From: Bacteroidota bacterium | Lineage (GTDB): Bacteria > Bacteroidota > Bacteroidia > Bacteroidales > WCHB1-69 | Reading direction: 5' to 3' | DNA: 64,000 bases | Assembly: GCA_009786185.1 (NCBI GenBank) | Contig: WQTS01000139.1 | Span: 6,802 to 70,801 of the forward strand | Shown: piece after piece, positions 2,090 to 42,498 of the stretch | Position numbering within the stretch: the stretch's first letter is position 1 | Layout of the letters: each line of letters begins with the position of its first letter | Position numbers and translations under genes: made by a program | Notes under the pieces: generated by a model | Databases searched by the model: none | The model's input: only the letters and a program-made list of their open reading frames with translations | What the model was told of the DNA's origin: nothing

Positions 2090-4582
2090 ATGGTAAAAAA
2101 TCTTCCCAAAACTGCAATCGTTTATCGAGATGTAAAATATTCATATACGCAACTTTTACAATACGCAGAAAAATATTGCCAAACATTTTTATTAAACGGA
2201 AAAACACCTGAAAAGGTGATGATTTTTGCGGATAACGCTCCCGAATACTTTTTTGCAACCTACGGAGCGCTTAAATGCGATGCAAGCGTTGTGCCGGTAG
2301 ATGTGCAGTCAACAGCAAAAGAGATTTCATATATCATGGAGGAGTGTCGTCCGGAAATTATCTTTGTTTCAGAATATTATAAAGAAAAAATTGCTGATAT
2401 TGCCAATGTCATTCCCGATTATTCATACACCATTTTTTCGCCTTCCGACATTGATATTTCAAATATTGAAGAGATGCCCATCAATGAGATTTCGATGAGA
2501 CAAGATGATCACGTGGCGGCAATTATTTACACTTCAGGAACAACCGGATCGCCTAAAGGCGTAATGCTTTCTTATAAGAATTTTTGGTACAATCTTGATG
2601 CGGTTGCTAATCAAATTCCTATCTTTAATTCCAACACTAATATAATGGTTTTGTTGCCGTTGCACCACTCATTTCCTTTTGCCGGCACGATGCTGGCGCC
2701 ACTTTATGCAGGAGGAACCTGCTGGATTACCGATGGTATGAAACCGGAATCTATTTTGCAAACTTTAAGCGATGGAAAAATAACGCTAATCATTGGAGTT
2801 CCAAGATTATATGAAACGTTAGCCAAAAGCATCATGTCGAAAATTAATGCAAGTTTTGCTGCAAAAACGCTTTACAAATTAGCATCGTTGTTAAAATCGC
2901 GCGCTTTTTCAAAAACCATTTTTAAAGCGGTGCATCAAAAGTTTGGCGGACATATTCAACATTTGGTTTCCGGCGGCGCAGCGCTACCGACAGATATTGC
3001 GAAAATATACAGAACCTTAGGATTTTATATTTTAGAAGGGTATGGCATGACCGAATGCGCCCCTATGATTACCTTTACGCGCCCCGGCGAATGGCGCTAC
3101 GGCTATGCCGGTCGTTTGTTGCCCGGCTGTGAAATGAAAATTGCAGAAAACGACGAAATTTTGGTAAGAGGAAACAACGTAATGCAAGGCTATTATAAAA
3201 AGCCTGAAGAAACGGCAGCTATTATTCGCGATGGTTGGTTGCACACGGGAGACACCGGAACCATTGATGAAATAGGCGTTAAAATTACAGGCAGAATTAA
3301 GGAAATAATTGTAACTTCTAACGGAAAAAACATCAATCCTGTAGAAATTGAATTTGAGTTGATGAAAAAAAGCGTTTTTATGAAAGAAATCGCCGCTTTT
3401 CTTCACAACGACCAACTACATTTACTCATTTATCCCGAAATGAGCGCCATACGCCTGCATTCCGATGGCGATTTTGATGAATTGTTGAAAAACGAAATTG
3501 CCGAATACAACAAAAATGCAATGCACTACAAGCGTATTCAGCAGTTTCATGTTGTTTCGGAAGAATTGCCCAAAACCAGATTGGGTAAAATTCAACGTTT
3601 TAAATTGGAAGAATTTATTCAAAAGAAAGAACAAAGACCTGATGAGGAGATAGGACATTTTTCATCTACATATAAAATCTTAAAACAGTTTATTGACAAA
3701 GAATTGAATGTAAAAGCGCATTCCGGAGATCATTTTGAAATAGATTTGGCAATGGATTCATTAAACAAACTTGCGTTGCTCGCTTTTATAGAAAATGCTT
3801 TCTCTATATCAATGAAAGCGCAAGAGTTAGATGAGTTGTGTTGCTTGGAAAAATTGAGTCAATCTATTGAAAAACAGGCACCGGAGTACAATGAAAATGA
3901 AATGTCGTGGAAAGATATTTTGCAAACGGAAAAACCCACGTTAAAATTGCCGCGTTCCGGTTTTATTCATTGGTTTACTGCTAATTTTATTAAGCTCACT
4001 TTTCATTTATATTTTTGTTTAAGAGGAAAAGGGAAAGAAAATATTCCCAACCAACCGGTGATTTTTGTGGCAAACCACCGGAGTGGATTAGATGGCGTTT
4101 TTGTAACGGCGCGTTTGCCGTGGAAAAGGGTAAAAAACACTTTCTTTTTTGCAAAAGACAAGCATTTTCAGTCGGTTTTTGCACGTTTTATGGCACCTCG
4201 AAACAATATTATTCTGATGAATATTAACACTAATCTTCGTGAATCCATTGTGCAGATGAGTGAAGTATTACGACAAGGAAAAAATGTGATCATTTTTCCG
4301 GAAGGAACGCGCGCTAAAGACAAGAAAATGAAAGATTTTAAGGATATGTTTGCTATTTTAAGCCAAGAATTGAATATCCCTATTGTTCCGGTTGCCATTT
4401 CAGGTTCCGAGCGCGCCGCATTTCGTTTTAAACGCATTCCGAGACCTTTTGTGCGCATATTTGTGGAATTTTTACCTCCAGTTTATCCCAATGCTAATGA
4501 AAATGTGCAAGAGTTGAAGGAAAAAGTGCAATTAATAATTGAAAGTGTATTAACACAAGATTCCTCGCTACGCTCGGAATAA
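2090..4582 (+). CDS. Tri-domain enzyme: AMP-dependent acyl ligase, carrier-protein-like domain and PlsC-type acyltransferase (Aas-like, reversed domain order)
   Basis: AMP-binding motifs YTSGTTGSPKGV and GWLHTGD. Phosphopantetheine-site-like DLAMDSLNKLALLAFIE. Acyltransferase motifs NHRSGLDG (HX4D) and FPEGTR. Confidence 0.75.
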   Translation: MVKNLPKTAIVYRDVKYSYTQLLQYAEKYCQTFLLNGKTPEKVMIFADNAPEYFFATYGALKCDASVVPVDVQSTAKEISYIMEECRPEIIFVSEYYKEKIADIANVIPDYSYTIFSPSDIDISNIEEMPINEISMRQDDHVAAIIYTSGTTGSPKGVMLSYKNFWYNLDAVANQIPIFNSNTNIMVLLPLHHSFPFAGTMLAPLYAGGTCWITDGMKPESILQTLSDGKITLIIGVPRLYETLAKSIMSKINASFAAKTLYKLASLLKSRAFSKTIFKAVHQKFGGHIQHLVSGGAALPTDIAKIYRTLGFYILEGYGMTECAPMITFTRPGEWRYGYAGRLLPGCEMKIAENDEILVRGNNVMQGYYKKPEETAAIIRDGWLHTGDTGTIDEIGVKITGRIKEIIVTSNGKNINPVEIEFELMKKSVFMKEIAAFLHNDQLHLLIYPEMSAIRLHSDGDFDELLKNEIAEYNKNAMHYKRIQQFHVVSEELPKTRLGKIQRFKLEEFIQKKEQRPDEEIGHFSSTYKILKQFIDKELNVKAHSGDHFEIDLAMDSLNKLALLAFIENAFSISMKAQELDELCCLEKLSQSIEKQAPEYNENEMSWKDILQTEKPTLKLPRSGFIHWFTANFIKLTFHLYFCLRGKGKENIPNQPVIFVANHRSGLDGVFVTARLPWKRVKNTFFFAKDKHFQSVFARFMAPRNNIILMNINTNLRESIVQMSEVLRQGKNVIIFPEGTRAKDKKMKDFKDMFAILSQELNIPIVPVAISGSERAAFRFKRIPRPFVRIFVEFLPPVYPNANENVQELKEKVQLIIESVLTQDSSLRSE

Positions 4583-4589
4583 CAAAAAA

Positions 4590-4640
4590 CCCCTTCAGAA
4601 TTTGAAGGGGTAGACGACAAAGCCGGACGGAATAGTTTAA
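4590..4640 (-). terminator. Hairpin ccccttcagaatttgaagggg followed by a T-run on the minus strand; also a copy of the CCCCTTCAAAATTTGAAGGGG repeat family
   Basis: 8-bp GC-rich stem at 4590-4597/4603-4610. The minus strand reads hairpin then TTTTTTG, directly downstream of the minus-strand gene ending at 4637. The tail gacggaatagttta matches the family consensus gacggggtagttta. Confidence 0.6.
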
Positions 4641-6148
4641 AACCTAACCCCCATTGTAAGCATAACACGGTGCGTGATAAATTTATTATTTACCGCATTT
4701 ACAAATGCAGGTTCATACAGCCAATATTTTTCTTTAGAAGTAGTAAGTGCATAAGCAAAATCGCTATAAAACACTCTTGTTCTAAAGCCTAAACCAGCTG
4801 ATGCATAATGTTTTGAACCGTCATTAATATTATCTTTGTACGGAGATGAAATATAGTTATATCCGGCTCTGATAGAAAATACTTGAGTTACACTAAATTC
4901 TGCGCCAATACGTGCGATGTGGCTAAGACCATACAAATTTTGGATGTTTTTATTTTCTGTATTGAAATTATAACGAGTCGAATACATCGTTGCCATGCTA
5001 TAATCGGTAATTTCATATTCAGCGCTGATAAAAGCACGTTGTTGAATGAAAAAAGCTACGTTTGCCATGGCGCGCAAAGGTGTAGTAAGCGAATAGTTAA
5101 ATCTATTTGCGTAACTGTCTTCTACACCGTAGTAATCTCTTACCCAGGATCCTGAAACCAAAACATCTTCCCAGGCGTGTGCTTCCATTCGTCTTTCAAA
5201 AAACTCTCTTACATTTCCATAATAAGTAGGAGTATGAAATGCCACACCTACACGTAAAAAATCAAAAGGTTGATAAATAGCACCCAATTTTAAATTAATA
5301 CCGGTAGCGCGAACGCTAAGCCTATCTGTAATGCTTATATTTTGAAAGTTGAAGGATTCAGCATTCTTATCATTTACTTCTTTATATGTCCTATTTTCCG
5401 TAAAATCAATGAATGGTACACCAAGAGTTGCGCCTATAAATACCATATCATCATAATTGGATCCGAATGAAAAGATCATTTCATCATTTCCTCCTGTTCG
5501 TATAACAGTAGAAGATTGGAACATATTAACACCTTCCATTGTAGGTCTATATGTAGTTGGAGTTATGTTGTCAATGAGAAAAGAGTTCCATCCAATCCAA
5601 GCCTCAGCTCCTCCCGGACCTTCAGGCCATCTACGCACATCGTCAGAGTTAAGACCAAGGTTAGTAGCTGTTATAGCAACCTCAGAACCTATAGTACTAC
5701 CTGCATTTCTTCCTTCAATAGAAAAAACGTTATTATAGTTTTTAACACGATTAAAGCCAAAGCCTATTTGAAATTTTTTCCATAATGTGCTTGAAACACC
5801 CGGCAATGCCCATACCATACCGGCGCTTCCTACATTATATTTCACCCCTTGTGCTAATGTGTTGGTTCCGTTGTAGTCGGAGGCATTTTTAAAAATAGAG
5901 AGTGTCATGGGGGTAAAAGTTACTTCATTTCTTTTGTACAACCCAATGGAGGCGGGGTTCGTGTTGAGCGCTGAAAACTCGGCGCCCACAGCGCCAAAGG
6001 CTCTTCCTGCACCCATAAAACGGGCAGTTCCTTGCCAGTCTAATTCTGAAAAGCGAAGCGCATCTATTTCATTTTGAGCGCCAACGTTGATTTGCATTAG
6101 TGAAATTAAACCAATGCAAAGGGCGAATTTTTTTAAAGTTTTTTTCAT
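4637..6148 (-). CDS. Outer-membrane beta-barrel protein, FadL/OmpP1-like (hydrophobic-compound channel family)
   Basis: Signal peptide. N-terminal DALRFSE..GTARFMGAGRAFGAVGAEFSALNTNPASIG motif typical of the FadL-like family. Alternating beta-strand pattern with C-terminal ...MGVRF. Confidence 0.55.
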   Translation of the reverse strand: MKKTLKKFALCIGLISLMQINVGAQNEIDALRFSELDWQGTARFMGAGRAFGAVGAEFSALNTNPASIGLYKRNEVTFTPMTLSIFKNASDYNGTNTLAQGVKYNVGSAGMVWALPGVSSTLWKKFQIGFGFNRVKNYNNVFSIEGRNAGSTIGSEVAITATNLGLNSDDVRRWPEGPGGAEAWIGWNSFLIDNITPTTYRPTMEGVNMFQSSTVIRTGGNDEMIFSFGSNYDDMVFIGATLGVPFIDFTENRTYKEVNDKNAESFNFQNISITDRLSVRATGINLKLGAIYQPFDFLRVGVAFHTPTYYGNVREFFERRMEAHAWEDVLVSGSWVRDYYGVEDSYANRFNYSLTTPLRAMANVAFFIQQRAFISAEYEITDYSMATMYSTRYNFNTENKNIQNLYGLSHIARIGAEFSVTQVFSIRAGYNYISSPYKDNINDGSKHYASAGLGFRTRVFYSDFAYALTTSKEKYWLYEPAFVNAVNNKFITHRVMLTMGVRF

Positions 6149-11334: not shown

Positions 11335-11520
11335 ATGGCAAGCGAAAAAAAATCGTTTATTATAAGAGTTGACGCGGAAACATTAGCTGCTATTGAAAAA
11401 TGGGCTACCGATGAGTTTCGTAGCACAAACGGACAAATTGAGTGGATTCTGTCAGAGGCGCTTAAAAAAGCCAAACGAAGCCCACGTCAACGCCCTGAAA
11501 ATAAAACTCCGGCTCATTAA
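11335..11520 (+). CDS. Small Arc/ribbon-helix-helix-like protein
   Basis: MASEKKSFIIRVDAETLAAIEKWATDEFRSTNGQIEWILSEAL is a typical RHH beta-strand plus two helices. The ATG at 11335 immediately follows the SPFH stop; the TTG/ATG-extended track start at 11311 overlaps that gene. Confidence 0.55.
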   Translation: MASEKKSFIIRVDAETLAAIEKWATDEFRSTNGQIEWILSEALKKAKRSPRQRPENKTPAH

Positions 11521-11552
11521 TCACTAATCATTAACCACTAATCACTAAACTA

Positions 11553-12110: not shown

Positions 12111-12135
12111 TGTTAGGTGGCTCAAAAGCATACAG

Positions 12136-12275
12136 ATGACACAGACTGACACAAATTTTCTCTGTGGTTCTCTGTGTCTCCTCTGTGCAACTCTGTGTAT
12201 TTTTGAGGTTTTGTGCGTTTTTTTTATTTCACAGAGAACCACAGAGAAAGCACAGAGAGTTACAGAGGAAGTTTC
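12136..12275. repeat. CTCTGTG-word palindromic element
   Basis: Left arm ctctgtggttctctgtgtctcctctgtgcaactctgtg (about 12160-12200) is an imperfect reverse complement of the right arm cacagagaaccacagagaaagcacagagagttacagagg (about 12229-12270). A related copy lies at 29247-29336. Confidence 0.8.
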
Positions 12276-17635: not shown

Positions 17636-18664
17636 ATGAAAAAAAATACACTATTAAGCCTCGTGCTGATGTTTGCAGGATTTATAGCCACAGCACAAAA
17701 CAATAGAATGATGCCTCATCATTTTTCCTCACAACACCCACAACTGGAATACTCGGATTTTGACTATTCTGATATGAAAAATCCCTATCTTCTATTGCAC
17801 AAAGCCAAATCAGGCAAAGATTGGTGGCAACCAGATACGGTATATGTGTATCCTCCCAATTCTGAACAGCCATCCCATCGAGAAATATTTTCTTATAATG
17901 CACAGGAATTGCTAACAGAATATTTACAGCAAAGCTGGCAAAATAACAATTGGGTGAACGACCGGAAAGATTTCTATACCTACGATACGCAGAATAAGCC
18001 TCTAACACGATTATCCCAAAGCTGGTATGGCACTAACTGGGTAAATAACTTTAGAAATATTTATACTTATGATGCACAGAATAACTTGATAACAGATTTA
18101 TTCCAAGGATGGTATGGCAATTGGGTGAATAGCTGGAGAGATACTTATACCTACGATGCGCAGAATAACTTACTAACAGAATTAGGCGAAACATGGCAAA
18201 CTGACAATTGGATGAATAGCGACAAAGGTATGTGGACTTATGATGAAAATAATAATAGTACCACAGTAGAATATTGGGTTTGGCAAGATGAGGATTGGCA
18301 GCAAGGTACAGTCCCTCTAACCTTATTCTACAACAATATGCAAAGTTATATCCGGGCATACAGTTCAGGGCATAAACGCACCGCCACCTACTTCAAATTA
18401 ATGACAAACATTGCCGAAAACGCCGCCGTCAATATTACGGTTTATCCAAACCCAACGAACGGACAATTACAAGTGAAGAGTTATGAGTTACAAGTTACAA
18501 GTATTTCCTTTTTCGATATTTACGGTAGAAGTATACAGACGCCGTCTATGTCGTTATCGTCTCCCGAAACTGTAATAGACCTTTCACATTTGCTGAGCGG
18601 TCTTTACTTTGTGAGAATATCCACCACTGTAGGAGAAATAGTTAAAAAGATATTGAAAGAGTAG
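17636..18664 (+). CDS. T9SS cargo protein with YD-like repeats
   Basis: Signal peptide. Repeated NWVN..YTYDAQNNLIT units. Type-A T9SS CTD (VYPNPTNGQLQV...FFDIYGRS...LSGLYFVRI...KKILKE). Confidence 0.75.
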   Translation: MKKNTLLSLVLMFAGFIATAQNNRMMPHHFSSQHPQLEYSDFDYSDMKNPYLLLHKAKSGKDWWQPDTVYVYPPNSEQPSHREIFSYNAQELLTEYLQQSWQNNNWVNDRKDFYTYDTQNKPLTRLSQSWYGTNWVNNFRNIYTYDAQNNLITDLFQGWYGNWVNSWRDTYTYDAQNNLLTELGETWQTDNWMNSDKGMWTYDENNNSTTVEYWVWQDEDWQQGTVPLTLFYNNMQSYIRAYSSGHKRTATYFKLMTNIAENAAVNITVYPNPTNGQLQVKSYELQVTSISFFDIYGRSIQTPSMSLSSPETVIDLSHLLSGLYFVRISTTVGEIVKKILKE

Positions 18665-21420: not shown

Positions 21421-21460
21421 AATTTAAACCTTAAATTTTAAATCTTTAAATTTTTAAATT
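21421..21460. repeat. AT-rich TAAATCTTTAAATTTTTAAAT-family repeat abutting a start codon
   Basis: nt 21439-21459 are identical to 58191-58211 (21 nt). It ends 1 nt before the ATG at 21461. Confidence 0.8.
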
Positions 21461-23866: not shown

Positions 23867-26554
23867 CTAGTTTTTTAAGCTTTTCAACAACAACTCCCCT
23901 GTCCCAATCCGATAGCCCTCTGATTTGAATACAAGTTTTCCTTCTTTATTCACAATAAACACCAACGGATATTCTTCTCTAAATTCCTGATTGGTGGTAT
24001 TTAATACATAATTCATAAACATTGATTCCTTATCAATTTCGAAAATAGAGTTTACAGGTAAATTCCAACGTTTCGGGTTGAAATCGGCGGTATTTTTTTC
24101 GCCGGGAATCATAAATAAAATATTGCCTCCCCATTTATCAAAATCATTTTTTAATGCTGCCATATCGTTGAATAAGTGACGAGTAGGTTCGCGCGCGGGA
24201 TCAATAAAGCAAAGTATCAATTCTTTTTCCTGCATTAAGTCAATGAGCGCTAATGTGTGTTCCTTGCCGGAATACGGTGAGTTCACCTCAATTTCACCGT
24301 AAGTTTTATTTTGAGGAATTAGTTTGCGTAACGTAACGGTTTTGCTCACTGTTTTTCCGGGTTCAATATTGAAAAACTCTAATTGTGAAAGTGTTTCGCC
24401 GTCGCTATAACGATTTCCGGTAGAAAGCATGTAATAACCGGGTTCCAATTCTAATGTGGCAGGGAAAGCTGCTACCCGTGGATCATCTTGGTAATTAAAG
24501 GTTACAAAATCGCCGTCTGCGAATTTTGCGATGGTGTAGTGGGTCCAGTATTCGGGGGTTTTGGCGTTTTTGGGGAGGGTTAGGGTTAAATTTCCATATA
24601 AACTACCCCGTGACACCCCTTCAAAATTTGAAGGGGATTTAGTGCCTGCTACTTTCTCCTTTCTCCCTTCTTCCTCTAAATCCACCACATTCCATTTTTT
24701 ATTTTGCCATACGAATATTTGATTAGTAGCAGCGTCTAAATATGCCGGAATATCTAAGGCTCGGCAGGCTGCCACGAAGAAGATGTTTCGCGAATGTTCG
24801 TCTGTGAGTCTTAAATCGTAAACACCTTTGGGTGAGATGGAGGCACGAAAATAATTGTCGTCGGAGCGCAAACGAATATTTGCATCCATCCAATCCAGAA
24901 GTTGTTGAGAAGTTGCATTCTCTCCTAATTCTGCTTCCAAGTTATCGAGTAAATAATGACGCCACATGCGCAATCCTTCATTAGAAATCCGTGCAGGAAT
25001 TATTCCTTTTACATAAACATCGAAAGGATATTTTTTTGAATCAAATAAAGTAGTATGTTCCTGCAAAATATCAGCAGGTGCATCGCGCAGGTCTTTGTCG
25101 GAAAGTGCGTTTAAAAATTCATACACATATAATCCGGCTCTTTTTTTGCCGTTTTGTTCCACAAACTTTTTAATTTCCGCATAATTTCCTTCGCTTTTTT
25201 GAATGAAATACCATACTTGTTCCGGCGTAAGATTTTCTGTTTTAATGATTTTTGCGTCCTCTTCATTCATAAAAGTAGTCAGATAGGCATTACGCACAGA
25301 ATCATTATATTGTAAACGTCTATTATTGATGTCGTTTTGTTCTTTCGTTGCCACTTTCTTTTTGGTTCCGGCATCGGGCGGGAAAATGTCCAACCACTCC
25401 ACGTATTCTTTACCCTGCTCATTTTCAAGCCTTATGGTTAATTCATCATTTTTACGCACATCGAACTTTTGGTAGCCGTATTTTCTGTTTTTTGTTACCC
25501 ACACGAGCAAATCGCCATAACCGGTACTAAGAGTAGCAACACCGTCTTTATCAGTATTAGTGGAAGCAAGGGAATAATATTCAGCAAAATTATAGAGTTT
25601 GAATTTTACGATGGCATCTTGCACGGGCATATTATTTTTATCTACCACAATGACCTTTATCTTTTTAGTATTCGTATAATTAGAAGTTAGATTTACCACA
25701 GAATATAATTCGGTTTCCAAAGTACGTTCTCCAAAATCTCCGCTTTTCCCAAACACGTTGGTGTGCACCATCATAGCGCGAGTAACGGGAAGGGCAAACC
25801 AACCCATATCTAATTCAGGATCAGGCTCACAAGCACCCAGAAAGTGCCAATTGCCGTTCACCCAAACTTCTACCCAAGCGTGATTGCTATTGGTGTGCGC
25901 CCAACGCGGTGTGTAAATCTGACGTGCCGGAATCCCCATGGCGCGCATGGCAGTAACCGTTAAGGTAGATTCTTCGCCACAACGCCCAAAGCCGGTACGA
26001 ATGGTAGCCAACGGCGACGAAGTTCTCCTATCCGAAGGACGATACGTTACTTTTTCGTGACACCAGTGGTTAATTTCCAATGCAGCATCGTACATGCTCA
26101 TGTCTCTAATTCTGTCTTTTAACTCATTGAAAATCACCATCCGTGCCGTATCCAAATCTTCATTATTTACACGATATACCAGCACAAAATGGCGAAATAT
26201 ATCTTCGGGAATAGCTGCGCCCCAAGGCATTTCATCTTGTGCTTTGAATGCGTAACGTACTTGATCCAAAAAGAATTTGCCGTCATAATCAGCTAAATCG
26301 CTCAACGGCATATACGCATACAAAAATTGCAATGCTTCTTTCTCTTTGTGTGTCAGAGTTTTGTCATTAAAAACAAAAAACAACTCCGTAGTGCGATCTC
26401 CCGCCAGCACTTTTCGTGCCTCAAAATCGGCTTGCACCATTAAGCGATAAGATTTGTCGGTTAGAAAATGAGGATCTTTACCACAAGAAGAAAAAAGAAA
26501 AACGGCGATTGTTATAAAAAGCAACCGGCTCAATATTAGATTGTTTTGCTTCAT
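23867..26554 (-). CDS. Transglutaminase-like domain lipoprotein with thioredoxin-like C-terminal region; carries an in-frame repeat copy
   Basis: Lipobox (FSSC). Transglutaminase core GFGRCGEESTLTVTAMRAMGIPARQIYTPRW...NHAWVEVWVNGNWHFLGACEP (Cys/His/Asp). Confidence 0.75.
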   Translation of the reverse strand: MKQNNLILSRLLFITIAVFLFSSCGKDPHFLTDKSYRLMVQADFEARKVLAGDRTTELFFVFNDKTLTHKEKEALQFLYAYMPLSDLADYDGKFFLDQVRYAFKAQDEMPWGAAIPEDIFRHFVLVYRVNNEDLDTARMVIFNELKDRIRDMSMYDAALEINHWCHEKVTYRPSDRRTSSPLATIRTGFGRCGEESTLTVTAMRAMGIPARQIYTPRWAHTNSNHAWVEVWVNGNWHFLGACEPDPELDMGWFALPVTRAMMVHTNVFGKSGDFGERTLETELYSVVNLTSNYTNTKKIKVIVVDKNNMPVQDAIVKFKLYNFAEYYSLASTNTDKDGVATLSTGYGDLLVWVTKNRKYGYQKFDVRKNDELTIRLENEQGKEYVEWLDIFPPDAGTKKKVATKEQNDINNRRLQYNDSVRNAYLTTFMNEEDAKIIKTENLTPEQVWYFIQKSEGNYAEIKKFVEQNGKKRAGLYVYEFLNALSDKDLRDAPADILQEHTTLFDSKKYPFDVYVKGIIPARISNEGLRMWRHYLLDNLEAELGENATSQQLLDWMDANIRLRSDDNYFRASISPKGVYDLRLTDEHSRNIFFVAACRALDIPAYLDAATNQIFVWQNKKWNVVDLEEEGRKEKVAGTKSPSNFEGVSRGSLYGNLTLTLPKNAKTPEYWTHYTIAKFADGDFVTFNYQDDPRVAAFPATLELEPGYYMLSTGNRYSDGETLSQLEFFNIEPGKTVSKTVTLRKLIPQNKTYGEIEVNSPYSGKEHTLALIDLMQEKELILCFIDPAREPTRHLFNDMAALKNDFDKWGGNILFMIPGEKNTADFNPKRWNLPVNSIFEIDKESMFMNYVLNTTNQEFREEYPLVFIVNKEGKLVFKSEGYRIGTGELLLKSLKN
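24596..24677 (-). repeat. Composite repeat (GA-rich tract, CCCCTTCAAAATTTGAAGGGG hairpin, GGGGTAGTTTATAT) translated inside the transglutaminase-like CDS
   Basis: Its reverse complement aligns with 39536-39640: shared aatccccttcaaattttgaaggggtg ... ggggtagtttatat. Read in frame as ...EEEGRKEKVAGTKSPSNFEGVSRGSLYG... Confidence 0.85.
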
Positions 26555-27419: not shown

Positions 27420-28025
27420 TTACAAATCTACACCCACGCCAATTCTAAAAAACGGATAATAATTATGAGTGTAATTATTGATGGTGGGTTGGGTTATCGG
27501 AATATTAAAAAGTACTAAAGCTTGAAAAAAGACGCGCGGAGCGATATATTGTTTGTAGCCGCCGCCTACGACAGCAAAATGAAAATTGTAAGCTTGTGAA
27601 GGCGAGCCATCTAACCACCTAAAATGGTTTTGTTCAAATTCATAGCCTGCATGCACTACAATTCTCTTAATAATACATGGTTGCAGCGCCACGCCAAGCC
27701 CCCAAATATGCGAATCATAAAAATTTCTTTGCCACATGTAGGTGTATTGTCCATTTGCTATCACGAGCAACCAAGGCTTAATATAAACGCCCGCTTGCGG
27801 TGATATGCTCACTGCGCTACCAAAGTTTCCGAATTGCACGCCAAAGCCACCGCCAACAACAATTTTCGGTCTGCCTTTTTTTGCCGGTATCTCTTTTTGC
27901 AGGCTTTGCGGGGGCGGAGGGGTGTTTTGAGCGAAACAAGGCACAAAGGAGAAGGGAGAAAGGAGAAAGGAGAAAAAGAGAATTTTGAATTTTGAATTTT
28001 GAATTTTAAATTTTGGATTATTCAT
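27420..28025 (-). CDS. Small beta-barrel-like hypothetical protein; signal peptide encoded by repeat DNA
   Basis: N-terminus MNNPKFKIQNSKFKILFFSFLLSPFSFVPCFAQ, then an alternating aromatic/Gly-rich sequence ending ...FFRIGVGVDL. Confidence 0.5.
   Translation of the reverse strand: MNNPKFKIQNSKFKILFFSFLLSPFSFVPCFAQNTPPPPQSLQKEIPAKKGRPKIVVGGGFGVQFGNFGSAVSISPQAGVYIKPWLLVIANGQYTYMWQRNFYDSHIWGLGVALQPCIIKRIVVHAGYEFEQNHFRWLDGSPSQAYNFHFAVVGGGYKQYIAPRVFFQALVLFNIPITQPTINNYTHNYYPFFRIGVGVDL
27930..28016. repeat. GA-rich GGAGAA(A/G)G tract plus 7-bp tandem GAATTTT x about 5
   Basis: aaggagaagggagaaaggagaaaggagaaaaagag followed by aattttgaattttgaattttgaattttaaattttgg. It overlaps the first roughly 30 codons of the minus-strand ORF. 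Confidence 0.85.
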
Positions 28026-28040
28026 TTTGCAATATTATTT

Positions 28041-28155
28041 TTAAATATAAACTACCTAGTCCAGCTTTGCCGTTCATCCTTTCAAAATTTGAAGAGGATT
28101 TTTTCGTCATTCCGAGTAAAGCAAGGAATCTCCTCCTTTCTCCCTTCTCCTTTCT
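28041..28155 (-). repeat. Degenerate copy of the composite GA-rich / CTTCAAAATTTGAAG / TAGTTTATAT element
   Basis: The reverse complement reads agaaaggagaagggagaaaggagga ... aatcctcttcaaattttgaaaggat gaacggcaaagctggac taggtagtttatattt. Compare 4590-4640 and 39536-39640. Confidence 0.75.
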
Positions 28156-28157
28156 AC

Positions 28158-29156
28158 CTATTTACACGCTTGGCAAGCCGTAATCGCTACCAAACTCACA
28201 ATATCTTCTACAGAGCAGCCGCGCGACAAGTCGTTAATGGGAGCAGCCATCCCTTGCATAATCGGTCCAATTGCTTCTGCACCGGCAATACGTTGTACTA
28301 ATTTGTAAGCAATATTTCCTACTTCTAAGGTTGGGAATATCAATACGTTGGCTCTTCCGGCAATTTCGCTGTCAGGGGCTTTCGATTTTCCTACGCTGGG
28401 CACAATAGCAGCATCGGCTTGCAATTCGCCGTCAATTTTGAATTGGGGCGCCATCTCTTGTGCTATTTTGGTAGCGTTTCGCACTTTATCCACCATTTCG
28501 TGTTTAGCAGAACCTTTCGTGGAGAAGCTCAACAATGCCACACGCGGATCTAACTGTGCGATAGATTTTGCGGTTTGTGCCGTAACTACTGCAATTTCAG
28601 CTAATTCACGTTCGTTCGGATTCGGATGTGCTGCACAATCCGCCCACACCATCACGCCATTGTCGCCCCACTGCGGATCTTTAAACACCATAATGAAAGC
28701 ACCGGAAACCACGGAAACACCGGGTAATGTTTTCACCACTTGAAACGCCGGACGAAGCACGTCGCCGGTAGCGTTTAATGCGCCGGCAACTTCGCCATCC
28801 ACTTCTTTGTTTTTAATCAACAGCGTTGCCAAATACAACGGATCTTCTACCAAACGCAAGGCTTCTTCCGGTTGCATACCTTTGCTTTTGCGAATTTCGC
28901 AAAGCATTTCAGCATAAAATTCTTTCTTCGGATTATTTTTCGGGTCAATAATTTGTGCTTCTTTAACGTGAGTTAGGCCCCACTCTTTTGCTTGCGTTTC
29001 AATTTTCTCTTTGTTGCCCAACAGTACAATCTTTGCAAAGTCTTCTTTTATGATAATATCGGCGGCTTTCAACGTTCTTTCTTCTTCACCCTCAGGAAGT
29101 ACAATGGTTTTGTTTGCCGATTTGGCGGTTGCTTTAATTTGATCGATTAAATTCAT
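28158..29156 (-). CDS. pta: Phosphate acetyltransferase
   Basis: KTIVLPEGEEERTLKAA..., C-terminal ...PINDLSRGCSVEDIV..., about 330 aa, class I Pta pattern. Confidence 0.9.
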   Translation of the reverse strand: MNLIDQIKATAKSANKTIVLPEGEEERTLKAADIIIKEDFAKIVLLGNKEKIETQAKEWGLTHVKEAQIIDPKNNPKKEFYAEMLCEIRKSKGMQPEEALRLVEDPLYLATLLIKNKEVDGEVAGALNATGDVLRPAFQVVKTLPGVSVVSGAFIMVFKDPQWGDNGVMVWADCAAHPNPNERELAEIAVVTAQTAKSIAQLDPRVALLSFSTKGSAKHEMVDKVRNATKIAQEMAPQFKIDGELQADAAIVPSVGKSKAPDSEIAGRANVLIFPTLEVGNIAYKLVQRIAGAEAIGPIMQGMAAPINDLSRGCSVEDIVSLVAITACQACK

Positions 29157-29246: not shown

Positions 29247-29336
29247 TACACAGAGAGCCACAGAGAAGGCACAGAGAATCACGGAGGGTTTTCATCTCTG
29301 TGGTTCTCTGCGTCTTCTTCGTGTAACTCCGTGAAA
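29247..29336. repeat. CTCTGTG-word palindromic element (second copy, arms in opposite order)
   Basis: cacagagagccacagagaaggcacagagaatcacggagg ... ctctgtggttctctgcgtcttcttcgtgtaactccgtg. It lies in the divergent intergenic region between pta and the TPR gene. Confidence 0.8.
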
Positions 29337-34313: not shown

Positions 34314-37217
34314 ATGTTCACCCTCTATAAAGCCTCCGCCGGCTCCGGCAAAACCTCACGTTTAGTAGTAGAATATTTGGCGTTGTGCCTGCCACAGCCC
34401 GAAAAATTCAAACACGTACTTGCCATCACATTTACCAATAACGCTACCGCCGAAATGAAATCACGTATCGTGGATACGCTTTCTGAATTTGCTTTTGAAC
34501 CTGAAATTACTTCCAAGTTTCCCATTTATCATACATATAATCAAGTTATCGCAAAGATCGCATTGCATCTGCCTGAAAATGAGAAATTTCCTTACATAAA
34601 AAAACAATCGAAATTACTATTAGAGAAGATTTTATATGAATACGACCGCTTTTCCATCAGCACGATAGATAGTTTTTTTCAACGCATTTTGCGCGCTTTT
34701 GCTTTGGAGTTTGGGCTTTCTTCACAATTTAATTTAGAAATAGAATTGGACGATTTTTTCCGGGAAACGACCGCCGTTTTATTGCATCGCATTTCTAAAA
34801 ACAACGAACATCTTACCCAACGCGTGTTAGATTTAGTTGAAAATATGATGTTGGAAAAAGGGAAATGGAAAATTGAAAAAGAAATTCTCAAATTGTTGAA
34901 AATTAGTTTGGAAGAGGAGGTTTATCTTCCATTAAAAGAACTACAAGAATCTGAAAATACAGATTTTGAACAAGCGAAGAAAAAAATTAACCAAGAGATT
35001 TATCGTTTGAGAAATCAATTGAAAAACTTTACAACGAAAGAAGAGAAGAAGTCAGAGGCTTGCCTAATGCTCAAAGAACAATTGTTAGAGTATGAATTTT
35101 TTGGCAAAAATCTGTTTCAATTAGCATTGTTATTTGATTTAAAGATGATTATGGATGAAATTAAAATGCAAGACAATCTCTTTTATCTTTCGGAAACCAA
35201 TACCAAAATAAAGGAAAAATTGGGCAACGATGACGTTCCTTTTATCTACGAAAAAATTGGGAATCAATACTCTTATTTTTTTATTGATGAGTTTCAGGAC
35301 ACATCTAAGTTACAGTGGCAAAACATGATACCGCTACTAAGAGAAGCATTGGCAGGTACAAACAGATTTTACGAGCAGGGAAAAGTTTTTCTTTTCGGCG
35401 ATGTGAAACAGGCGATTTACCGTTTTCGCAACGGCGATGCAGATATTTTACAACAACTTTCTAACATTGAAGGTTACAAATCTGCCGTTTTGCCCTATTC
35501 AAAGCCGGAAGAAGATTATCGCGTGGAGTTATTGGATACTAATTTTCGCTCTTCAAAAAAAGTAATAGAATTTAATAATGCATTTTTTGATTTTTTAACT
35601 GCTGAAAACGGACCTTTTCACGAAGCGAAAGACTTTTACGAAGATGTGAAGCAAAAAACAAAACCCACCGCCGAAGAAGGCTTGGTAACGGTGCGTTTTC
35701 AAGAAGAGGAAGATAACCGCAAGTTTCAGGAATTTATGCCGGAACATGTCTTGGAAACTGTTTTAGACGCACTTCAACGCGGATACGCCTACAAAAATAT
35801 TGCCGTATTAGTGAGCAACAATGATTCGGCGAGCGCCATAGGCACATTTTTAATTGCCAACAACATCCCGATTATTTCTGCCGAATCGTTGCAACTGTCC
35901 GCATCCTCCGAAATTAATCTGTTGATCGCCACTTTGCAATATTTGGTTTCTGAAGAAGACAAATTGGCAAAATTGACAATGATTCATTATTTGGCGCAAC
36001 AAAATAACCTCCTATTAGAAAATTACATGCCTTGCATGCAAAATGAGCATGCCTTCCAACAGTTTTTAACAAATATTAATATCAACATTAGCAGAAAAAA
36101 ATTAAATTCACTTCCTTTATTCACCTTAATAGTCGAACTAAGTCGAATTATGTCGCTCTCCGTATGCAACCCATTTCTAATAAGATTATTAGACGAAACC
36201 GAAAAATTCGCCACAAAACGCAACGGTTCTACTCCCTTATTTTTAGAGTGGTGGGAAGAAAAAGGGCAAACCCTGGCGCTTTCTACTCCTCCGGGCATTG
36301 ATGCCGTAACAATTTCTACCATTCACAAATCCAAAGGATTAGAATATCCTGTTGTAATTTTTCCATTTAGCCGCTACAGCAATTTTAAAACCAAACCCGA
36401 TATATTTGTGAAAGATGAAAATCGCGTTACCGGTTTAGAATACGATTGGGTAACTTTATCCGATAAAAAAACGCCCGCGCGCTACCGGCACAAATACGCC
36501 GAAGAATCAAAGAAAACGCTGATTGATCAGTTAAACAAGTTGTATGTTGCCCACACCCGCGCGAGAACCGAGTTGCACATCATTACCGAAAAACCAAATG
36601 CGAGGGCGGGGAATTATAGTAAGTTTTTGGCAGCGTTCGGTGCGAGATATGAGGTTGGAGGTATGCGGTACGAGGTGTGCGGTGAGCGGTATGCGGTGGA
36701 CGGTGAATGGGAAATAAAAGGCAGAAAACAGAAAACAAAAAGCAATACACCACTTTGCGAACCATCTCTTCTGCCCTCTGCTCATCACCTCGCACCTCAC
36801 ACCTCATACCGCATACCGCATACCACCCAGCAACTCCGCGGCATCTTCATCCACAATTTCTTATCTTCTTTAACAACGTTTCCTCAAAACGAAAAAGAGA
36901 TAGACTGGGTGGTACAAAACGTAGAGGAAGCGTACAAAAAAGATCTTGCAAATATTTTTTATAAAATTCTGAATGACAAATCACTATCTCCATACTTTGT
37001 TTCGGAAGTAAAGGTGTTGAATGAAACTTCCATTTTGTTCCCAAACGGCAATTTATTGCGCCCCGACCGTGTAGTTTTTTTAGAAGACCGAACAGCGGTC
37101 ATTGACTATAAAACAGGCGAACCCAATGCTTCGCACAAAGAGCAGTTAGAACAATATTGTGAGGCTATTCGTGCGATGGGGTATGGAAATGTAGAGGGGC
37201 ATATTTTGTATGTATAA
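34314..37217 (+). CDS. UvrD-type helicase with C-terminal PD-(D/E)XK nuclease (AddA/RecB-like); carries an in-frame palindromic insertion
   Basis: Walker A ASAGSGKT, FIDEFQDTS, helicase motif VI-like LYVAHTRART, C-terminal nuclease motif RPDRVVF...IDYKTGE. Confidence 0.75.
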   Translation: MFTLYKASAGSGKTSRLVVEYLALCLPQPEKFKHVLAITFTNNATAEMKSRIVDTLSEFAFEPEITSKFPIYHTYNQVIAKIALHLPENEKFPYIKKQSKLLLEKILYEYDRFSISTIDSFFQRILRAFALEFGLSSQFNLEIELDDFFRETTAVLLHRISKNNEHLTQRVLDLVENMMLEKGKWKIEKEILKLLKISLEEEVYLPLKELQESENTDFEQAKKKINQEIYRLRNQLKNFTTKEEKKSEACLMLKEQLLEYEFFGKNLFQLALLFDLKMIMDEIKMQDNLFYLSETNTKIKEKLGNDDVPFIYEKIGNQYSYFFIDEFQDTSKLQWQNMIPLLREALAGTNRFYEQGKVFLFGDVKQAIYRFRNGDADILQQLSNIEGYKSAVLPYSKPEEDYRVELLDTNFRSSKKVIEFNNAFFDFLTAENGPFHEAKDFYEDVKQKTKPTAEEGLVTVRFQEEEDNRKFQEFMPEHVLETVLDALQRGYAYKNIAVLVSNNDSASAIGTFLIANNIPIISAESLQLSASSEINLLIATLQYLVSEEDKLAKLTMIHYLAQQNNLLLENYMPCMQNEHAFQQFLTNININISRKKLNSLPLFTLIVELSRIMSLSVCNPFLIRLLDETEKFATKRNGSTPLFLEWWEEKGQTLALSTPPGIDAVTISTIHKSKGLEYPVVIFPFSRYSNFKTKPDIFVKDENRVTGLEYDWVTLSDKKTPARYRHKYAEESKKTLIDQLNKLYVAHTRARTELHIITEKPNARAGNYSKFLAAFGARYEVGGMRYEVCGERYAVDGEWEIKGRKQKTKSNTPLCEPSLLPSAHHLAPHTSYRIPHTTQQLRGIFIHNFLSSLTTFPQNEKEIDWVVQNVEEAYKKDLANIFYKILNDKSLSPYFVSEVKVLNETSILFPNGNLLRPDRVVFLEDRTAVIDYKTGEPNASHKEQLEQYCEAIRAMGYGNVEGHILYV
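36636..36832. repeat. Palindromic element with GGTATGCGGT/GAGGTGTG-word arms, inside the helicase-nuclease CDS
   Basis: Left arm gaggtatgcggtacgaggtgtgcggtgagcggtatgcggtgg is an imperfect reverse complement of the right arm cacctcgcacctcacacctcataccgcataccgcataccaccc. They flank an A-rich core and are translated as ...GARYEVGGMRYEVCGERYAVDGEWEIKGRKQKTK...HLAPHTSYRIPHTT... Confidence 0.85.
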
Positions 37218-39042: not shown

Positions 39043-39537
39043 ATGTTTATGAGTAAAAAAAAGAACAACAAAGAGATCGAGCTTAATGAGCAAGTTGAAA
39101 TTCTAAATGCAGAAAAAGCAGAATTAAATGATCGCTTTTTGCGCCTTTATTCAGAATTTGAAAATTATAAAAAACGAACCAACAAGGAAAAATTAGACCT
39201 TATAGCCACCGCTTCAGAAAGAGTTATCTTAGGACTGCTCCCTATTGTGGATGATTACGAAAGAGCCATTAAACACAACCAAAACACAGAAGATATTGCC
39301 ACTTTAAAAGAAGGATTTACGCTTATTTACAGCAAATTATTAACATTATTAAAACGTTTTGAAGTAGAAGAAATCATCGCTTTAGGCGAAATCTTTGATA
39401 CCGATTTGCACGAAGCAGTTACGCATCTTCCCGCACAATGCGAAGAAGATAAAGGAAAAATAATGGACGTTACCGAAAAAGGATACAAGCTGAAAGACAA
39501 GGTGATACGGTTCTCGAAAGTGGTAGTGGCAAATTAG
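39043..39537 (+). CDS. grpE: Nucleotide exchange factor GrpE
   Basis: RLYSEFENYKKRTNKE ... GLLPIVDDYERA ... pattern, directly upstream of dnaJ. Confidence 0.9.
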   Translation: MFMSKKKNNKEIELNEQVEILNAEKAELNDRFLRLYSEFENYKKRTNKEKLDLIATASERVILGLLPIVDDYERAIKHNQNTEDIATLKEGFTLIYSKLLTLLKRFEVEEIIALGEIFDTDLHEAVTHLPAQCEEDKGKIMDVTEKGYKLKDKVIRFSKVVVAN

Positions 39538-39640
39538 GAGAAAGGGAGAAGGGAGAAAATGGGAGAAAGAAGGGAAACGGAAGAATAATCCCCTTCAAAT
39601 TTTGAAGGGGTGGCTCGCGAAGCGAGACGGGGTAGTTTAT
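39536..39640 (+). repeat. Composite repeat (GA-rich tract, CCCCTTCAAATTTTGAAGGGG hairpin, ctcgcgaagcgag hairpin, GGGGTAGTTTATAT) filling the grpE-dnaJ spacer
   Basis: Best-preserved copy of the family also seen at 4590-4640, 24596-24677 and 28041-28155. It ends 16 nt before the dnaJ ATG. Confidence 0.85.
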
Positions 39641-39655
39641 ATTAAAAAAAGTTAA

Positions 39656-40956: not shown

Positions 40957-42498
40957 ATGAGAAAAATATTACTTTTCTTTACCATTTTAATAACTACAAC
41001 TACCATCTCGCTTGCCCAAGAGCGCTTAGTAACCCGTGGCGCAAACTCCGGCGAATTATATTTAACCACTGATTGGTACGGAATATATCAACCTATGGGA
41101 CCTCCATTTTATGACACCCTGTATAGATCCGTTTTCCGGTTGACCGAAAATGGTAAGAAATTAACCATACCATATTCCTTAAATCTTATAGGTAGCTATC
41201 CCATACATGAAGTAATGTATCCCAGTATTATCCTTGCAGATGCCACACCCGGAGTAGTATATAACAAGTATTCCTATATAAGTGGTAGTAACCGTACGCA
41301 ACTTTGGGTAAGTTTCGATTATGGGAAAAATTGGTTGCTTAGAGAAGACAGTATAGGAAGAAGAAGATTTCATGTAGCAAATGTTGAAGGTTTTATATAT
41401 AGAGCAGGAAGTGATGGAACATACAAAAGCGAAAATTATGGTGATTTTTTCTCTAAAATAGATATTGTGTCCGCAGGGTCTGAACCTGGCTTGCTTAGTG
41501 GGGAAGCTTTTAGTATAGGTACTTACAACTCTTACCAAGGTAGATTTTTACATACATATAATTTTTATGAAACTTATACAGAAGTTCCTTTAGACAGCCA
41601 ATTTGTCTTTGGCAACGTGATGGGTATATTCCCTGATGTTTACCGGGGAGGTAAAGAAGGCGAGGTGTATGTGAGCTCTGCATTTCCGGACGGAACATAC
41701 AGAGTATCTTTTAGCGCAGATATCGGGCAAACTTTTCGTCATGTGCATATTTGTTATGGTTTTGATTGTTTTCTCATAACAGGTAACGGGGTTGAAATAG
41801 CAACCACTTTTATGTCAGACCGCGAGCCGGGCGTTTTTTATATCATCAAAACCTATTGGGTAGAAGATCTAAATCCTTGGGGTTTCCACAAAAAAATTTG
41901 TATTATGTATTACCGGGACTACGGAGAAACATTGGAAGCTACTTTTTGCCACAATATTACTAAAAACTATGAATATAAGGAAGTAAATTGTGATTATGCT
42001 ACCTTGTTAGAATCAAATGTTAATCAAAATTCAATTCAATTACAATGGAACTGTTCGGCAAATAATTCGTACATTCGTGGTTATCATATTTACAGAAACA
42101 ACATGCGCATAACCACCCAATTACTAATGGAATCTACCTACTTAGATGAAAACTTACCTAATGGTAATTATGAGTATTATGTGAGAACGTATTATGTTGA
42201 AGGCTGTGTATCAGACAGTTCAAATCATGTAAGAGAAACTATTGAACTTGGAGTTAAGGAAATTAAGGAATTAGAAGGAGTTATTTTATTACCAAATCCA
42301 ACCACAGGTAAGTTACAAGTTCAAAGTTCAAAGTTTAAAGTGACAAGTGTAGAGGTTTTTGATGTATATGGAAGAAAGCAGAAGGCAGAAAGCAGAAAGC
42401 AGAATGAAATAGATATTTCAGAATTGCAAACAGGTATCTATTTTGTAAGACTTCAAACTGAAAAAGGAATTACAACAAAAAAAATAGTAAAACATTAA
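40957..42498 (+). CDS. T9SS cargo protein with Fn3-like domain
   Basis: Signal peptide, IQLQWNCSANNSYIRGYHIYRNN (Fn3-like), type-A CTD (LLPNPTTGKLQV...VFDVYGRK...TGIYFVRL). Confidence 0.7.
   Translation: MRKILLFFTILITTTTISLAQERLVTRGANSGELYLTTDWYGIYQPMGPPFYDTLYRSVFRLTENGKKLTIPYSLNLIGSYPIHEVMYPSIILADATPGVVYNKYSYISGSNRTQLWVSFDYGKNWLLREDSIGRRRFHVANVEGFIYRAGSDGTYKSENYGDFFSKIDIVSAGSEPGLLSGEAFSIGTYNSYQGRFLHTYNFYETYTEVPLDSQFVFGNVMGIFPDVYRGGKEGEVYVSSAFPDGTYRVSFSADIGQTFRHVHICYGFDCFLITGNGVEIATTFMSDREPGVFYIIKTYWVEDLNPWGFHKKICIMYYRDYGETLEATFCHNITKNYEYKEVNCDYATLLESNVNQNSIQLQWNCSANNSYIRGYHIYRNNMRITTQLLMESTYLDENLPNGNYEYYVRTYYVEGCVSDSSNHVRETIELGVKEIKELEGVILLPNPTTGKLQVQSSKFKVTSVEVFDVYGRKQKAESRKQNEIDISELQTGIYFVRLQTEKGITTKKIVKH

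Follow-up and report, generated by a model that had tools for sequence, protein, structure and literature searches.

A probable family of non-autonomous palindromic repeats in termite-gut Bacteroidota, with one copy in frame in a transglutaminase-like gene

Introduction

The stretch of DNA analysed here, hereafter the window, comprises 64,000 nucleotides of contig WQTS01000139.1 (positions 6,802 to 70,801 of the forward strand; assembly GCA_009786185.1) from a Bacteroidota bacterium. On its minus strand, an open reading frame (ORF) at 23867-26554 encodes a transglutaminase-like protein of 895 amino acids with the Pfam domains Transglut_core and Big_1, which is identical to a protein from a Bacteroidetes metagenome-assembled genome (MAG) and whose closest relatives are labelled Lentimicrobiaceae. 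Within this ORF and at three other sites of the window lies a short element composed of two hairpins and a tail. We describe the family to which this element belongs, probably one of short, non-autonomous, dispersed palindromic repeats, selfish in the manner of repetitive extragenic palindromic (REP) sequences, bacterial interspersed mosaic elements (BIMEs) and MITEs (transposable elements of the miniature inverted-repeat type), and tolerated in frame in the manner of Rickettsia palindromic elements (RPEs) and intragenic REPs.

Colonization of housekeeping genes by in-frame palindromic repeats at scale has so far been known mainly from Rickettsia, with scattered intragenic REPs elsewhere. The family from termite-gut Bacteroidota would be an independent many-copy case in another phylum and with another lifestyle, simple in structure and with orthologues at several stages of decay, and would offer a second system for asking how repeats spread, which protein sites tolerate them and whether protein evolution owes anything to them. 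Homology searches and gene callers run on these MAGs will encounter repeat-derived peptides such as SPSNFEGV..GRGSLY, GEKEKGE.., ..ARNDG.. and FLLLSEEKVADGG.., which are uninformative on protein ancestry.

Results

Copies of the element in the window

A covariance model (R1) was derived from 62 related cores and applied, unfiltered, to the entire window, where it returned exactly four full-length matches, the next best one scoring 13 bits (Table 1); these are the four copies that the first-pass annotation had listed. Hairpin 1 (CCCCTTCAAATTTTGAAGGGG) is present in each of them, with three mismatches at 28077-28097, against a chance expectation of 0.01, and the string GGTAGTTTATAT occurs exactly at 24596, 28045 and 39631. 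The same annotation had ascribed one composite order to all copies, beginning with a GA tract. The core motif is indeed common to the four, but a GA tract stands beside only three of them and the second hairpin is missing from the in-gene copy. Nor is the GA tract a fixed component, as had been supposed: the 4590 copy is preceded by GATTCCTCGCTACGCTCGGAATAAC instead, and GA tracts also stand without a core at 1459-1493, 27945-27975 and 46051-46078.

The best-preserved copy occupies the gap between the stop codon of grpE (39537) and the ATG of dnaJ (39656), both products being assigned by Pfam; its hairpin 2 reads GCTCGC GAA GCGAGA (39613-39627), and an orthologous core likewise separates grpE and dnaJ in Emb289P3bin108, a Lentimicrobiaceae MAG from termite gut (locus L073; further loci are given by their L numbers). 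At the 4584 copy, the module at 4559-4583 encodes the C-terminus ...DSSLRSE and the TAA stop of ORF 2090-4582, and ORF 4637-6148 on the minus strand takes its TAA stop from the reverse complement of the tail. The tail of the 28044 copy, GGTAGTTTATAT, stops 19 nt upstream of the ATG at 28025, and 79-105 nt past this tail lies a GA array that is the inverted complement of the upstream one, an arrangement peculiar to this copy. A larger inverted-repeat element, in which the upstream GA array would pair with a downstream complement, was considered and rejected: only the 28044 copy has it (score 22), and in an inverted-flank test the scores of 64 copies equalled those of the controls, with 4 of the 64 above the 95th percentile of controls.

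Table 1. Cores of the element in the window and the repeat modules adjoining them
Feature	Position	Strand	Details
Best-preserved core	39584..39643	+	R1 84.7 bits; hairpin 1 39590-39610, tail GGGGTAGTTTATAT 39629-39642
GA-rich 7-nt array (GGAGAAA/GGGAGAA), 5' of the 39584 core	39537..39583	+	Tandem Repeats Finder (TRF) period 7 at 39537-39569
Core within the transglutaminase-like ORF	24595..24642	-	R1 62.9 bits; hairpin 1 24616-24636, tail 24596-24609; encodes ...KSPSNFEGVSRGSLYG
GA 7-nt array 5' of the in-gene core, read as EEEGRKEKVAGT	24643..24676	-	
Degenerate core, convergent genes on either side	4584..4643	+	R1 56.6 bits; hairpin 1 4590-4610, tail GGAATAGTTTAAAAC
Separate hairpin module GATTCCTCGCTACGCTCGGAATAAC, directly 5' of the core	4559..4583	+	
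Degenerate core, hairpin 1 CCTCTTCAAATTTTGAAAGGA	28044..28103	-	R1 48.9 bits; hairpin 1 28077-28097
GATTCCTTGCTTTACTCGGAATGAC module (28106-28130) and GA 7-nt array (28133-28159), both 5' of the degenerate core	28106..28159	-	
GA 7-nt array, inverted complement of 28133-28159	27945..27975	+	In the N-terminal part of ORF 27420-28025

Structure of the core

The core is about 55-60 nt long and consists, in this order, of AWWAT, hairpin 1, TG, hairpin 2 and the tail GGGGTAGTTTATAT. Across 148 copies, information content is high between position -5 (AWWAT) and the closing TATAT and falls away steeply at -6 and at +5 past TATAT, followed by a weaker preference for NAAA 3' of the tail. The stem of hairpin 1 is 8-9 bp long and essentially invariant in sequence; its 5' arm was exact in 82 of 129 copies among the metagenome matches listed in a scan that left this arm free, and the other 5' arms of that set are single mismatches without compensation. 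One clear exception is the left arm CCTCTTCGAGTGTCGAAGGG of a Francisella doublet, with CGA/TCG in place of CAAA/TTTG.

Hairpin 2, with a stem of 4-8 bp and loops that are mostly GAA or GCA, is free in sequence but keeps its pairing. Its variants include GCCC-GAA-GGGC, GTCTCGC-GAA-GCGAGAC, GTCCGGC-GAA-GCCGGAC, GATTTTGC-GAA-GCAAAATC and GTCGCC-GCAA-GGCGAC, and further stem pairs seen are TCTCGC/GCGAGA, TCCGGC/GCCGGA, ATTTTGC/GCAAAAT and TCGCC/GGCGA. In an alignment of related cores, six of the seven pairs are altered on both sides, and the compensatory cells number 70, compared with 22.9 +/- 4.9 in shuffled alignments (none of 500 reaching 70) and 1-26 in slid controls. Both hairpins are predicted to form as RNA (-19.3 kcal/mol, z -2.3) and as DNA (-14.4 kcal/mol, z -5.2), and it is presumably folding of a single strand, whether DNA or RNA, that keeps hairpin 2 paired. 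The length of hairpin 2 varies by at least 8 nt, and the distance between the TTTG of hairpin 1 and the tail ranges from 22 to 30 nt.

Arrays and modules adjoining the core

Tandem arrays lie within 100 nt 5' of the core in 44 of 67 copies, 31 of them with a period of 7, 14 or 21, and 3' of the core in 15 of 67 (5' vs 3', Fisher p = 7e-7). The array units differ from copy to copy (GGAGAAA, GATGAGG, GGTTAGT, AATTAAG, GATTTAA and others), and the GA tract is one kind among the many 7-nt arrays found beside the core.

Small hairpin modules can stand between array and core, forming mosaics. One of them, GATTCCTCGCTACGCTCGGAATGAC, is found in the window at 4559-4583 (plus strand) and 28106-28130 (minus strand) and has 27 matches in 21 related loci. 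It is read as ..IPRYARND.. or ..DSSLRSE*, the latter supplying the stop of an 830-aa AMP-binding/acyltransferase ORF; peptides of this type recur in many hypothetical proteins from MAGs.

Distribution of the family

The family extends far beyond the window, whereas a lack of further copies is what the first-pass annotation would have taken as a refutation, with about 150 distinct copies in the sequences collected. A scan of species-representative genomes for hairpin 1 yielded 74 loci, about 55 of them in Emb289P3bin108, about nine in Th196P4bin9 and two in Nc150P4bin20; single copies with the full architecture were found in a Chitinophagales MAG (L002), a Bacteroidales MAG (L014), a Prevotellaceae MAG (L035) and Francisella sp. 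SYW-9 (L071). The remaining matches, in Bacillus, Chryseobacterium, Niabella and others, are bare palindromes between A and T runs, that is, ordinary terminators. Emb289P3bin108 accounts for about 55 of the roughly 70 full-length copies that the covariance model recovered in the loci of the three termite-gut MAGs. Metagenomes scanned with the 3' half of hairpin 1 plus the tail as key gave at least 119 further loci; among those listed, nearly all are contigs of the Joint Genome Institute (JGI) by name, and several share assemblies with the termite-gut MAGs. Overall, at least 148 distinct copies with an exact hairpin 1 are present among the sequences collected. Plasmid and phage collections contained no relevant match to the core, and a protein database query with a 48-aa concatenated peptide matched only six short proteins, which is uninformative as a census.

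Outside Lentimicrobiaceae, the order hairpin 1, TG, hairpin 2, CGGGGTAGTTT is seen in Francisella sp. SYW-9 (L071, 5154-5290) and in the Chitinophagales MAG (L002, 3030-3096). The Francisella copy is a head-to-head doublet between housekeeping genes.

Intragenic copies and their reading frame

Among the loci of the MAGs and the window, about 27 of 72 copies lie in long ORFs. In the independent metagenome set, here and below among the matches listed, ORFs with at least 200 nt open to either side hold 32 of 101 assessable copies. A single strand and phase is used by 29 of these 32 (binomial p = 7.5e-15 against one in four). The favoured frame is on the element's own strand and encodes SPSNFEGV(SGEA/PE/DGEA)GRGSLY, and the host frames remain open for hundreds to thousands of bases on both sides.

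In Emb289P3bin108, hosts identified by eye comprise a UvrD/AddA-type helicase, FtsK, an AroA-like enzyme, LpxK, FolC, MurF, a class II fumarase, a double ABC ATPase (two copies), a GH2 beta-mannosidase, a nucleotidyltransferase-like/peptidase-like fusion (two copies) and paralogues with a type IX secretion system (T9SS) tail (two copies each). A Pfam run on five intragenic hosts confirmed the UvrD helicase, FtsK, MurF and fumarase, with matches to either side of the core, and in the ABC ATPase host ABC_tran was matched in two stretches. According to the domain boundaries, the core lies in the linker between the 4TM and alpha domains of FtsK and inside Mur_ligase_M of MurF, and it splits Lyase_1 of the fumarase.

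Two of the six frames of the element contain stops, a TGA in hairpin 1 and a TAA in the reverse complement of the tail. The three other open frames encode more hydrophobic or Cys-containing peptides, and the reverse strand of the GA array gives runs of F, L, S and P. Since stops and such peptides would suffice to produce the bias if the peptide is under selection, we infer that this selection, and not the mechanism of insertion, causes it. The conserved open frame and fixed phase also argue that intragenic copies are translated. Ribosomal bypass or removal at the RNA level would require neither an open frame nor a fixed phase, and we rejected both because the two are strictly kept.

The copy in the transglutaminase-like gene

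The fourth copy had been described as read through without breaking the frame, and this holds: it is translated in silico as EEEGRKEKVAGTKSPSNFEGVSRGSLYG, residues 627-654 of the 895-aa ORF (24593-24676). In an alignment of 28 orthologues, the insert SPSNFE...GRGSLYG is common to P0002, P0003 and P0004 (79-82% identity), seven orthologues (64-74% identity) have different inserts rich in E, K, G and S at the same site, and 17 (53-60% identity) have none; conservation of the peptide in orthologues from genomes that lack the repeat family, which the first-pass annotation would have taken as a refutation, is not seen in these 17. The DNA of the four insert-bearing genes can be aligned across the element. 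The core is intact in Emb289P3bin108 (L063) and has one mismatch in hairpin 1 in L075. In L077, most G-C pairs of hairpin 1 are gone, together with 3 nt of the tail, and a 12-nt in-frame deletion relative to the orthologues has removed hairpin 2 from the window copy. As the orthologous copies are common to four lineages and have decayed to differing degrees, the insertion appears to predate their split and to drift as a tolerated passenger would. In an AlphaFold2 model derived from an alignment (mean predicted local distance difference test score, pLDDT, 77.8), the longest segment with pLDDT below 50 is formed by residues 628-650, that is, by the element peptide, between predicted beta strands at 620-624 and 654-659.

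The insert of another orthologue, P0006 (LCALCEKSLRLCG), looks like a translated repeat of the CACAGAGAAAC type; such repeats, 10-11 nt long, occur together with their complement in the window at 12132-12258 and 29249-29310.

Regulatory, RNA-level and protein-level explanations

The first-pass annotation had suggested that the element combines terminator and promoter functions. In its fullest form, this would be a regulatory cassette in which hairpin 1 ends upstream transcription and the TAGTTTATAT tail serves as a promoter element for the downstream gene. Some evidence favours it: on the minus strand, hairpin 1 followed by a T-rich run is terminator-like at 4611-4589, where the T-run noted earlier reads TTTTTTG, and at 39610-39590; the same palindrome flanked by A and T runs is a plain terminator in unrelated bacteria (L015, L018, L026, L033, L045, L061); and about 11 intergenic copies, among them those before dnaJ and before the ORF at 28025, have an ATG on the same strand 11-39 nt downstream of the tail. 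The terminator-like strand is, however, opposite to the tail; read along the element itself, hairpin 1 leads into TG and a second hairpin, with no T run. Features of an intrinsic terminator are thus absent in that orientation and from intragenic copies, and are present in antisense for some copies only; between grpE and dnaJ the antisense score is irrelevant, both genes being on the plus strand. The short distance to start codons would be expected anyway, because the element fills short intergenic gaps.

As to the promoter, the -7 box of Bacteroidetes has the consensus TAnnTTTG, which the invariant tail TAGTTTAT does not fit; the 22-30 nt between TTTG and tail are set by the length of hairpin 2, and because this length varies as described, a -33/-7 spacing is not conserved. 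A sigma-70-type promoter scan found nothing specific at the tails. Moreover, intergenic copies have mixed orientations (about 15 co-directional, at least nine antiparallel, five convergent and two divergent), and one third of copies lie inside ORFs. Terminator and promoter activity is therefore not supported as a general function of the element, and we consider a regulatory cassette improbable. The reverse complement of the tail provides the TAA stop of convergent genes not only for ORF 4637-6148 of the window but also in L009, L024, L028, L030 and L072.

About equally doubtful is the idea that the element acts in its own right as a structured RNA motif, in mRNA stabilization, as a processing site or as part of a small RNA, in which case the covariation of hairpin 2 would reflect selection on an RNA fold. 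Such a motif would account for this covariation, for the two-hairpin RNA fold of -19 to -20 kcal/mol (z about -2.3), for loops that match stable RNA types (GCAA, CTTG) and for the hairpin 1 and tail sequences kept across phyla. Against it, Rfam 15 contains no match to the core at the gathering threshold (one tRNA only) and yields only noise up to E = 10, copies run both with and against the direction of transcription, and orthologous in-gene copies decay, hairpin 1 pairing being lost in L077 and hairpin 2 in the window. The commonest loops, C-GAA-G and C-GCA-G, are also of a DNA type, both being classic, very stable DNA mini-hairpins, and the DNA fold has the better z (-5.2).

Selection at the protein level, with SPSNFEGV...GRGSLY and its E/K/G-rich leader serving as a flexible linker, tag or recognition site, would agree with the extreme frame bias (29/32), the retention of the transglutaminase insert across four lineages and the presence of two copies in some proteins (L050, L064, L066), but it is very unlikely. 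Two thirds of copies stand between genes, and the proteins that host the others are unrelated in function. The peptide is located in a loop predicted to be disordered and drifts among orthologues, and what is conserved is the nucleotide sequence together with the pairing of hairpin 2, which alters the peptide (SGEAG, PEG, DGEAG). The frame bias is accounted for by stops in two frames out of six and by the hydrophobic or Cys-containing peptides of the others.

Discussion

Spread, tolerance and mobility

A selfish palindromic repeat tolerated in frame appears to us the probable explanation. Under it, copies would have spread to many unrelated sites in the genomes of termite-gut Lentimicrobiaceae, presumably by transposition, and those in genes would have survived only where they were harmless to the protein, that is, in permissive loops and linkers, on the stop-free strand and in the stop-free phase, and with a hydrophilic peptide. 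The tolerated peptide would be an E/K/G-rich tract followed by SPSNFEGV...GRGSLY. The transglutaminase copy would be one such survivor, inserted before the split of the window genome, Emb289P3bin108 and two metagenome lineages and now slowly decaying.

Where orthologues of about 80% identity were compared, the same permissive sites turned out to carry differing arrays. In L059 the helicase site has GA arrays and a core, and in the window it has no core but other 7-nt arrays and their inverted complement; the site at 48134-48478 has a core in L004 and a different hairpin in the window; and in the linker of the nucleotidyltransferase-like/peptidase-like fusion (identified by eye), L050 has a GA array and a core and L017 a GTCACTY x4 array. 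Judged by sequence, such sites look like permissive hot spots that were hit repeatedly, not like clean empty sites. The helicase insert of the window (36638-36824, in the UvrD-type ORF 34314-37217) consists of in-frame 7-nt arrays, GGTGCGA/GGTATGC, followed about 90 nt on by the reverse-complement arrays CACCTCG/ACCGCAT; it forms a long inverted repeat at the exact site of the GA arrays and core of the Emb289P3bin108 orthologue.

Doublets of about 240 nt, with a core as inverted terminus at either end and the tails pointing outward, were found at unrelated loci (L087, L140, L120/L192), and the Francisella locus L071 has the same layout with a shorter spacer; inverted pairs are seen in only a few loci in all (L044, L087, L120, L140, L154, L071). 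The outer ends of the doublets read TATATAAAC...GTTTATATA and are themselves palindromic, so that a duplication of TA or TATA is indistinguishable from the terminus. A search (tblastn) with approximate IS200 TnpA and YafM sequences through about 1.2 Mb of sequence flanking the element had no match below E = 1, which is a weak test. Because a hairpin is followed by an invariant GTAG, our guess for the mobilizing enzyme would be a single-strand transposase of the HUH or REP-associated tyrosine transposase (RAYT) type.

Several observations count against a selfish mobile repeat. The invariance of hairpin 1 is partly a collection effect, because copies were gathered by scans keyed on it, and complementary changes in a palindrome can also arise by intrastrand template switching, with no need for selection. 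Hairpin 1 and the tail are identical in Bacteroidota and Francisella, which is unexpected for a purely selfish, lineage-specific repeat and could reflect a conserved function. Most copies are single, and the arms of doublets carry different hairpin 2 variants, which is unusual for terminal inverted repeats recognized by a protein. No transposase was found among the genes neighbouring the Francisella and Chitinophagales copies, and a megablast with joined flanks of 196 loci and the window returned only identical duplicates and no pairs of filled and empty alleles; transposition, exact ends and a target-site duplication therefore stay putative.

A more specific scenario, which is speculative and on balance unlikely, holds that the core is the recognition end of a single-strand DNA mobilization system of the HUH/RAYT type, with a hairpin upstream of GTAG, common to Bacteroidota and Francisella, and that the 7-nt arrays are made or recruited at insertion. 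Since each 7-nt unit moves the frame by one position and no frame of a GA unit contains a stop, slippage of the array could seat insertions in an open frame, which, if true, would explain the colonization of essential genes at such a scale.

Comparison with known repeats

In behaviour, the element resembles most closely what is known of RPEs, repeats of about 100-150 bp from intracellular Alphaproteobacteria (Ogata et al. 2000, 2002, via PMC10969869, PMC3733652) that are tagged with CGTC (PMC3733652). Both are dispersed short palindromes with many copies in frame in unrelated housekeeping genes and with a conserved peptide, and for both, permissive surface positions are presumed and no transposase is known (PMC10969869, PMC3733652). 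In-frame copies in unrelated functional genes, encoding a conserved peptide, are what was found here. The termite-gut core differs, however, in its length of about 57 nt, its two separate hairpins, its GTAG-containing tail, its occurrence in gut Bacteroidota and its usual association with 7-nt arrays; no sequence similarity is evident, and the core has no CGTC end. The element is accordingly not an RPE as far as its sequence can tell, however similar its behaviour.

With GTAG REPs the element shares short stem-loops, complementary stem variants (hairpin 2, among about 150 distinct copies), a nearly invariant GTAG beside the stem, single units and inverted dimers, mosaics with small motifs, stop codons formed by its ends, and some intragenic copies, including in UvrD-type helicases. 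In a classical REP, GTAG (or GTGG) stands 5' of the stem on its own strand, whereas here the nearly invariant GTAG is 3' of hairpin 2, after GGG, a polarity that appears to be the opposite. The extra invariant hairpin and the TTTATAT tail also belong to the unit. REPs, imperfect palindromes of 20-40 bp whose cognate RAYT gene (Y1/HUH transposase) is flanked by them in the same genome (a REPtron), are mostly extragenic and often form inverted dimers, but in the termite-gut family most copies are single and about one third are intragenic, far above the share usual for REPs. Intragenic GTAG/CGTC REPs have been described, some of them in UvrD-type helicases, and their ends give stop codons (Di Nocera et al.; PMC3733652, PMC10969869); GTAG-tagged REPs, BIMEs and REP doublets forming hairpins (REPINs) are mobilized by RAYT tyrosine transposases (PMC3733652, PMC3116915). 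The 2013 survey (PMC3733652) does not report GTAG REPs in Bacteroidetes. From sequence, membership of the element in the GTAG REP family is not established.

MITEs are marked by terminal inverted repeats, a target-site duplication and a related autonomous insertion sequence. Like MITEs such as the pneumococcal BOX and the Neisseria Correia elements (PMC10969869), the element is a small, structured, non-coding unit of modular build whose internal units vary in number, it can fuse in frame with host ORFs, and its doublets of about 240 nt have the core as long inverted termini. It differs from them in that most copies are single-ended, the internal part is not conserved, the termini of doublets differ in hairpin 2 and no parent insertion sequence was found.

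The 7-nt arrays recall those of cyanobacteria. Short tandemly repeated heptamers (STRR) and small dispersed repeats occur there in genomes rich in a few types of 7-nt unit. In the termite-gut family, tandem 7-nt arrays are likewise abundant, limited in unit types and tied to other small mobile repeats, but the phylum and unit sequences differ, and the arrays also lie in coding regions and directly 5' of the core. An excess of heptamers has been noted in bacteria (PMC4692102).

Other repeats in the window

A second two-hairpin repeat family, CCTTCTCCTYTCTGAGGAGAAGG-TG-GCAGACGGCGGCTCGCCGCCGGATGACGG.., is present at 1459-1565 and 48303-48369. Chorismate synthase contains it in frame, after a GA array, as ..EKGKGRREKGEKFLLLSEEKVADGDLSASDGRG.., and ORF 48034-48825 also reads it; the peptide EKGKGRREKGEKFLLLSEEKVADGDLSASDGRG is also found in three Emb289P3bin108 proteins, including FtsK. 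At 48196-48219 there is a classical-looking REP, with GTAG directly followed by the palindrome GGGCGCAA-AATC-TTGCGCCC, at a site where L004 has a core.

In the T9SS-tailed ORF 42848-46759, a GA array passes directly into GGAAATTTATAT, with no hairpins (46051-46090). At this position related genes in L041, L066 and L067 hold a complete core, a difference of 51 nt, and the array with GGAAATTTATAT could be either a copy that lost its core or a state older than the core.

Tandem 7-nt arrays of many sequences are unusually dense throughout the window, in intergenic regions and in ORFs alike (for example at 11514-11548, 18463-18502, 21423-21460, 27980-28019, 42310-42404). The N-terminus of ORF 27420-28025 is an AAAATTC x5.7 + TC array, and for this reason its called start is perhaps not real. 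A hairpin with a 16-bp stem at 29272-29310, within the CACAGAGAAAC-type repeats, was flagged as terminator-like. Outside the window, L076 (5655-6860) and L075 are near-identical contigs of different samples that diverge upstream of position 7183, where L076 carries a phage-type integrase and unannotated genes, an integrated element in one population only.

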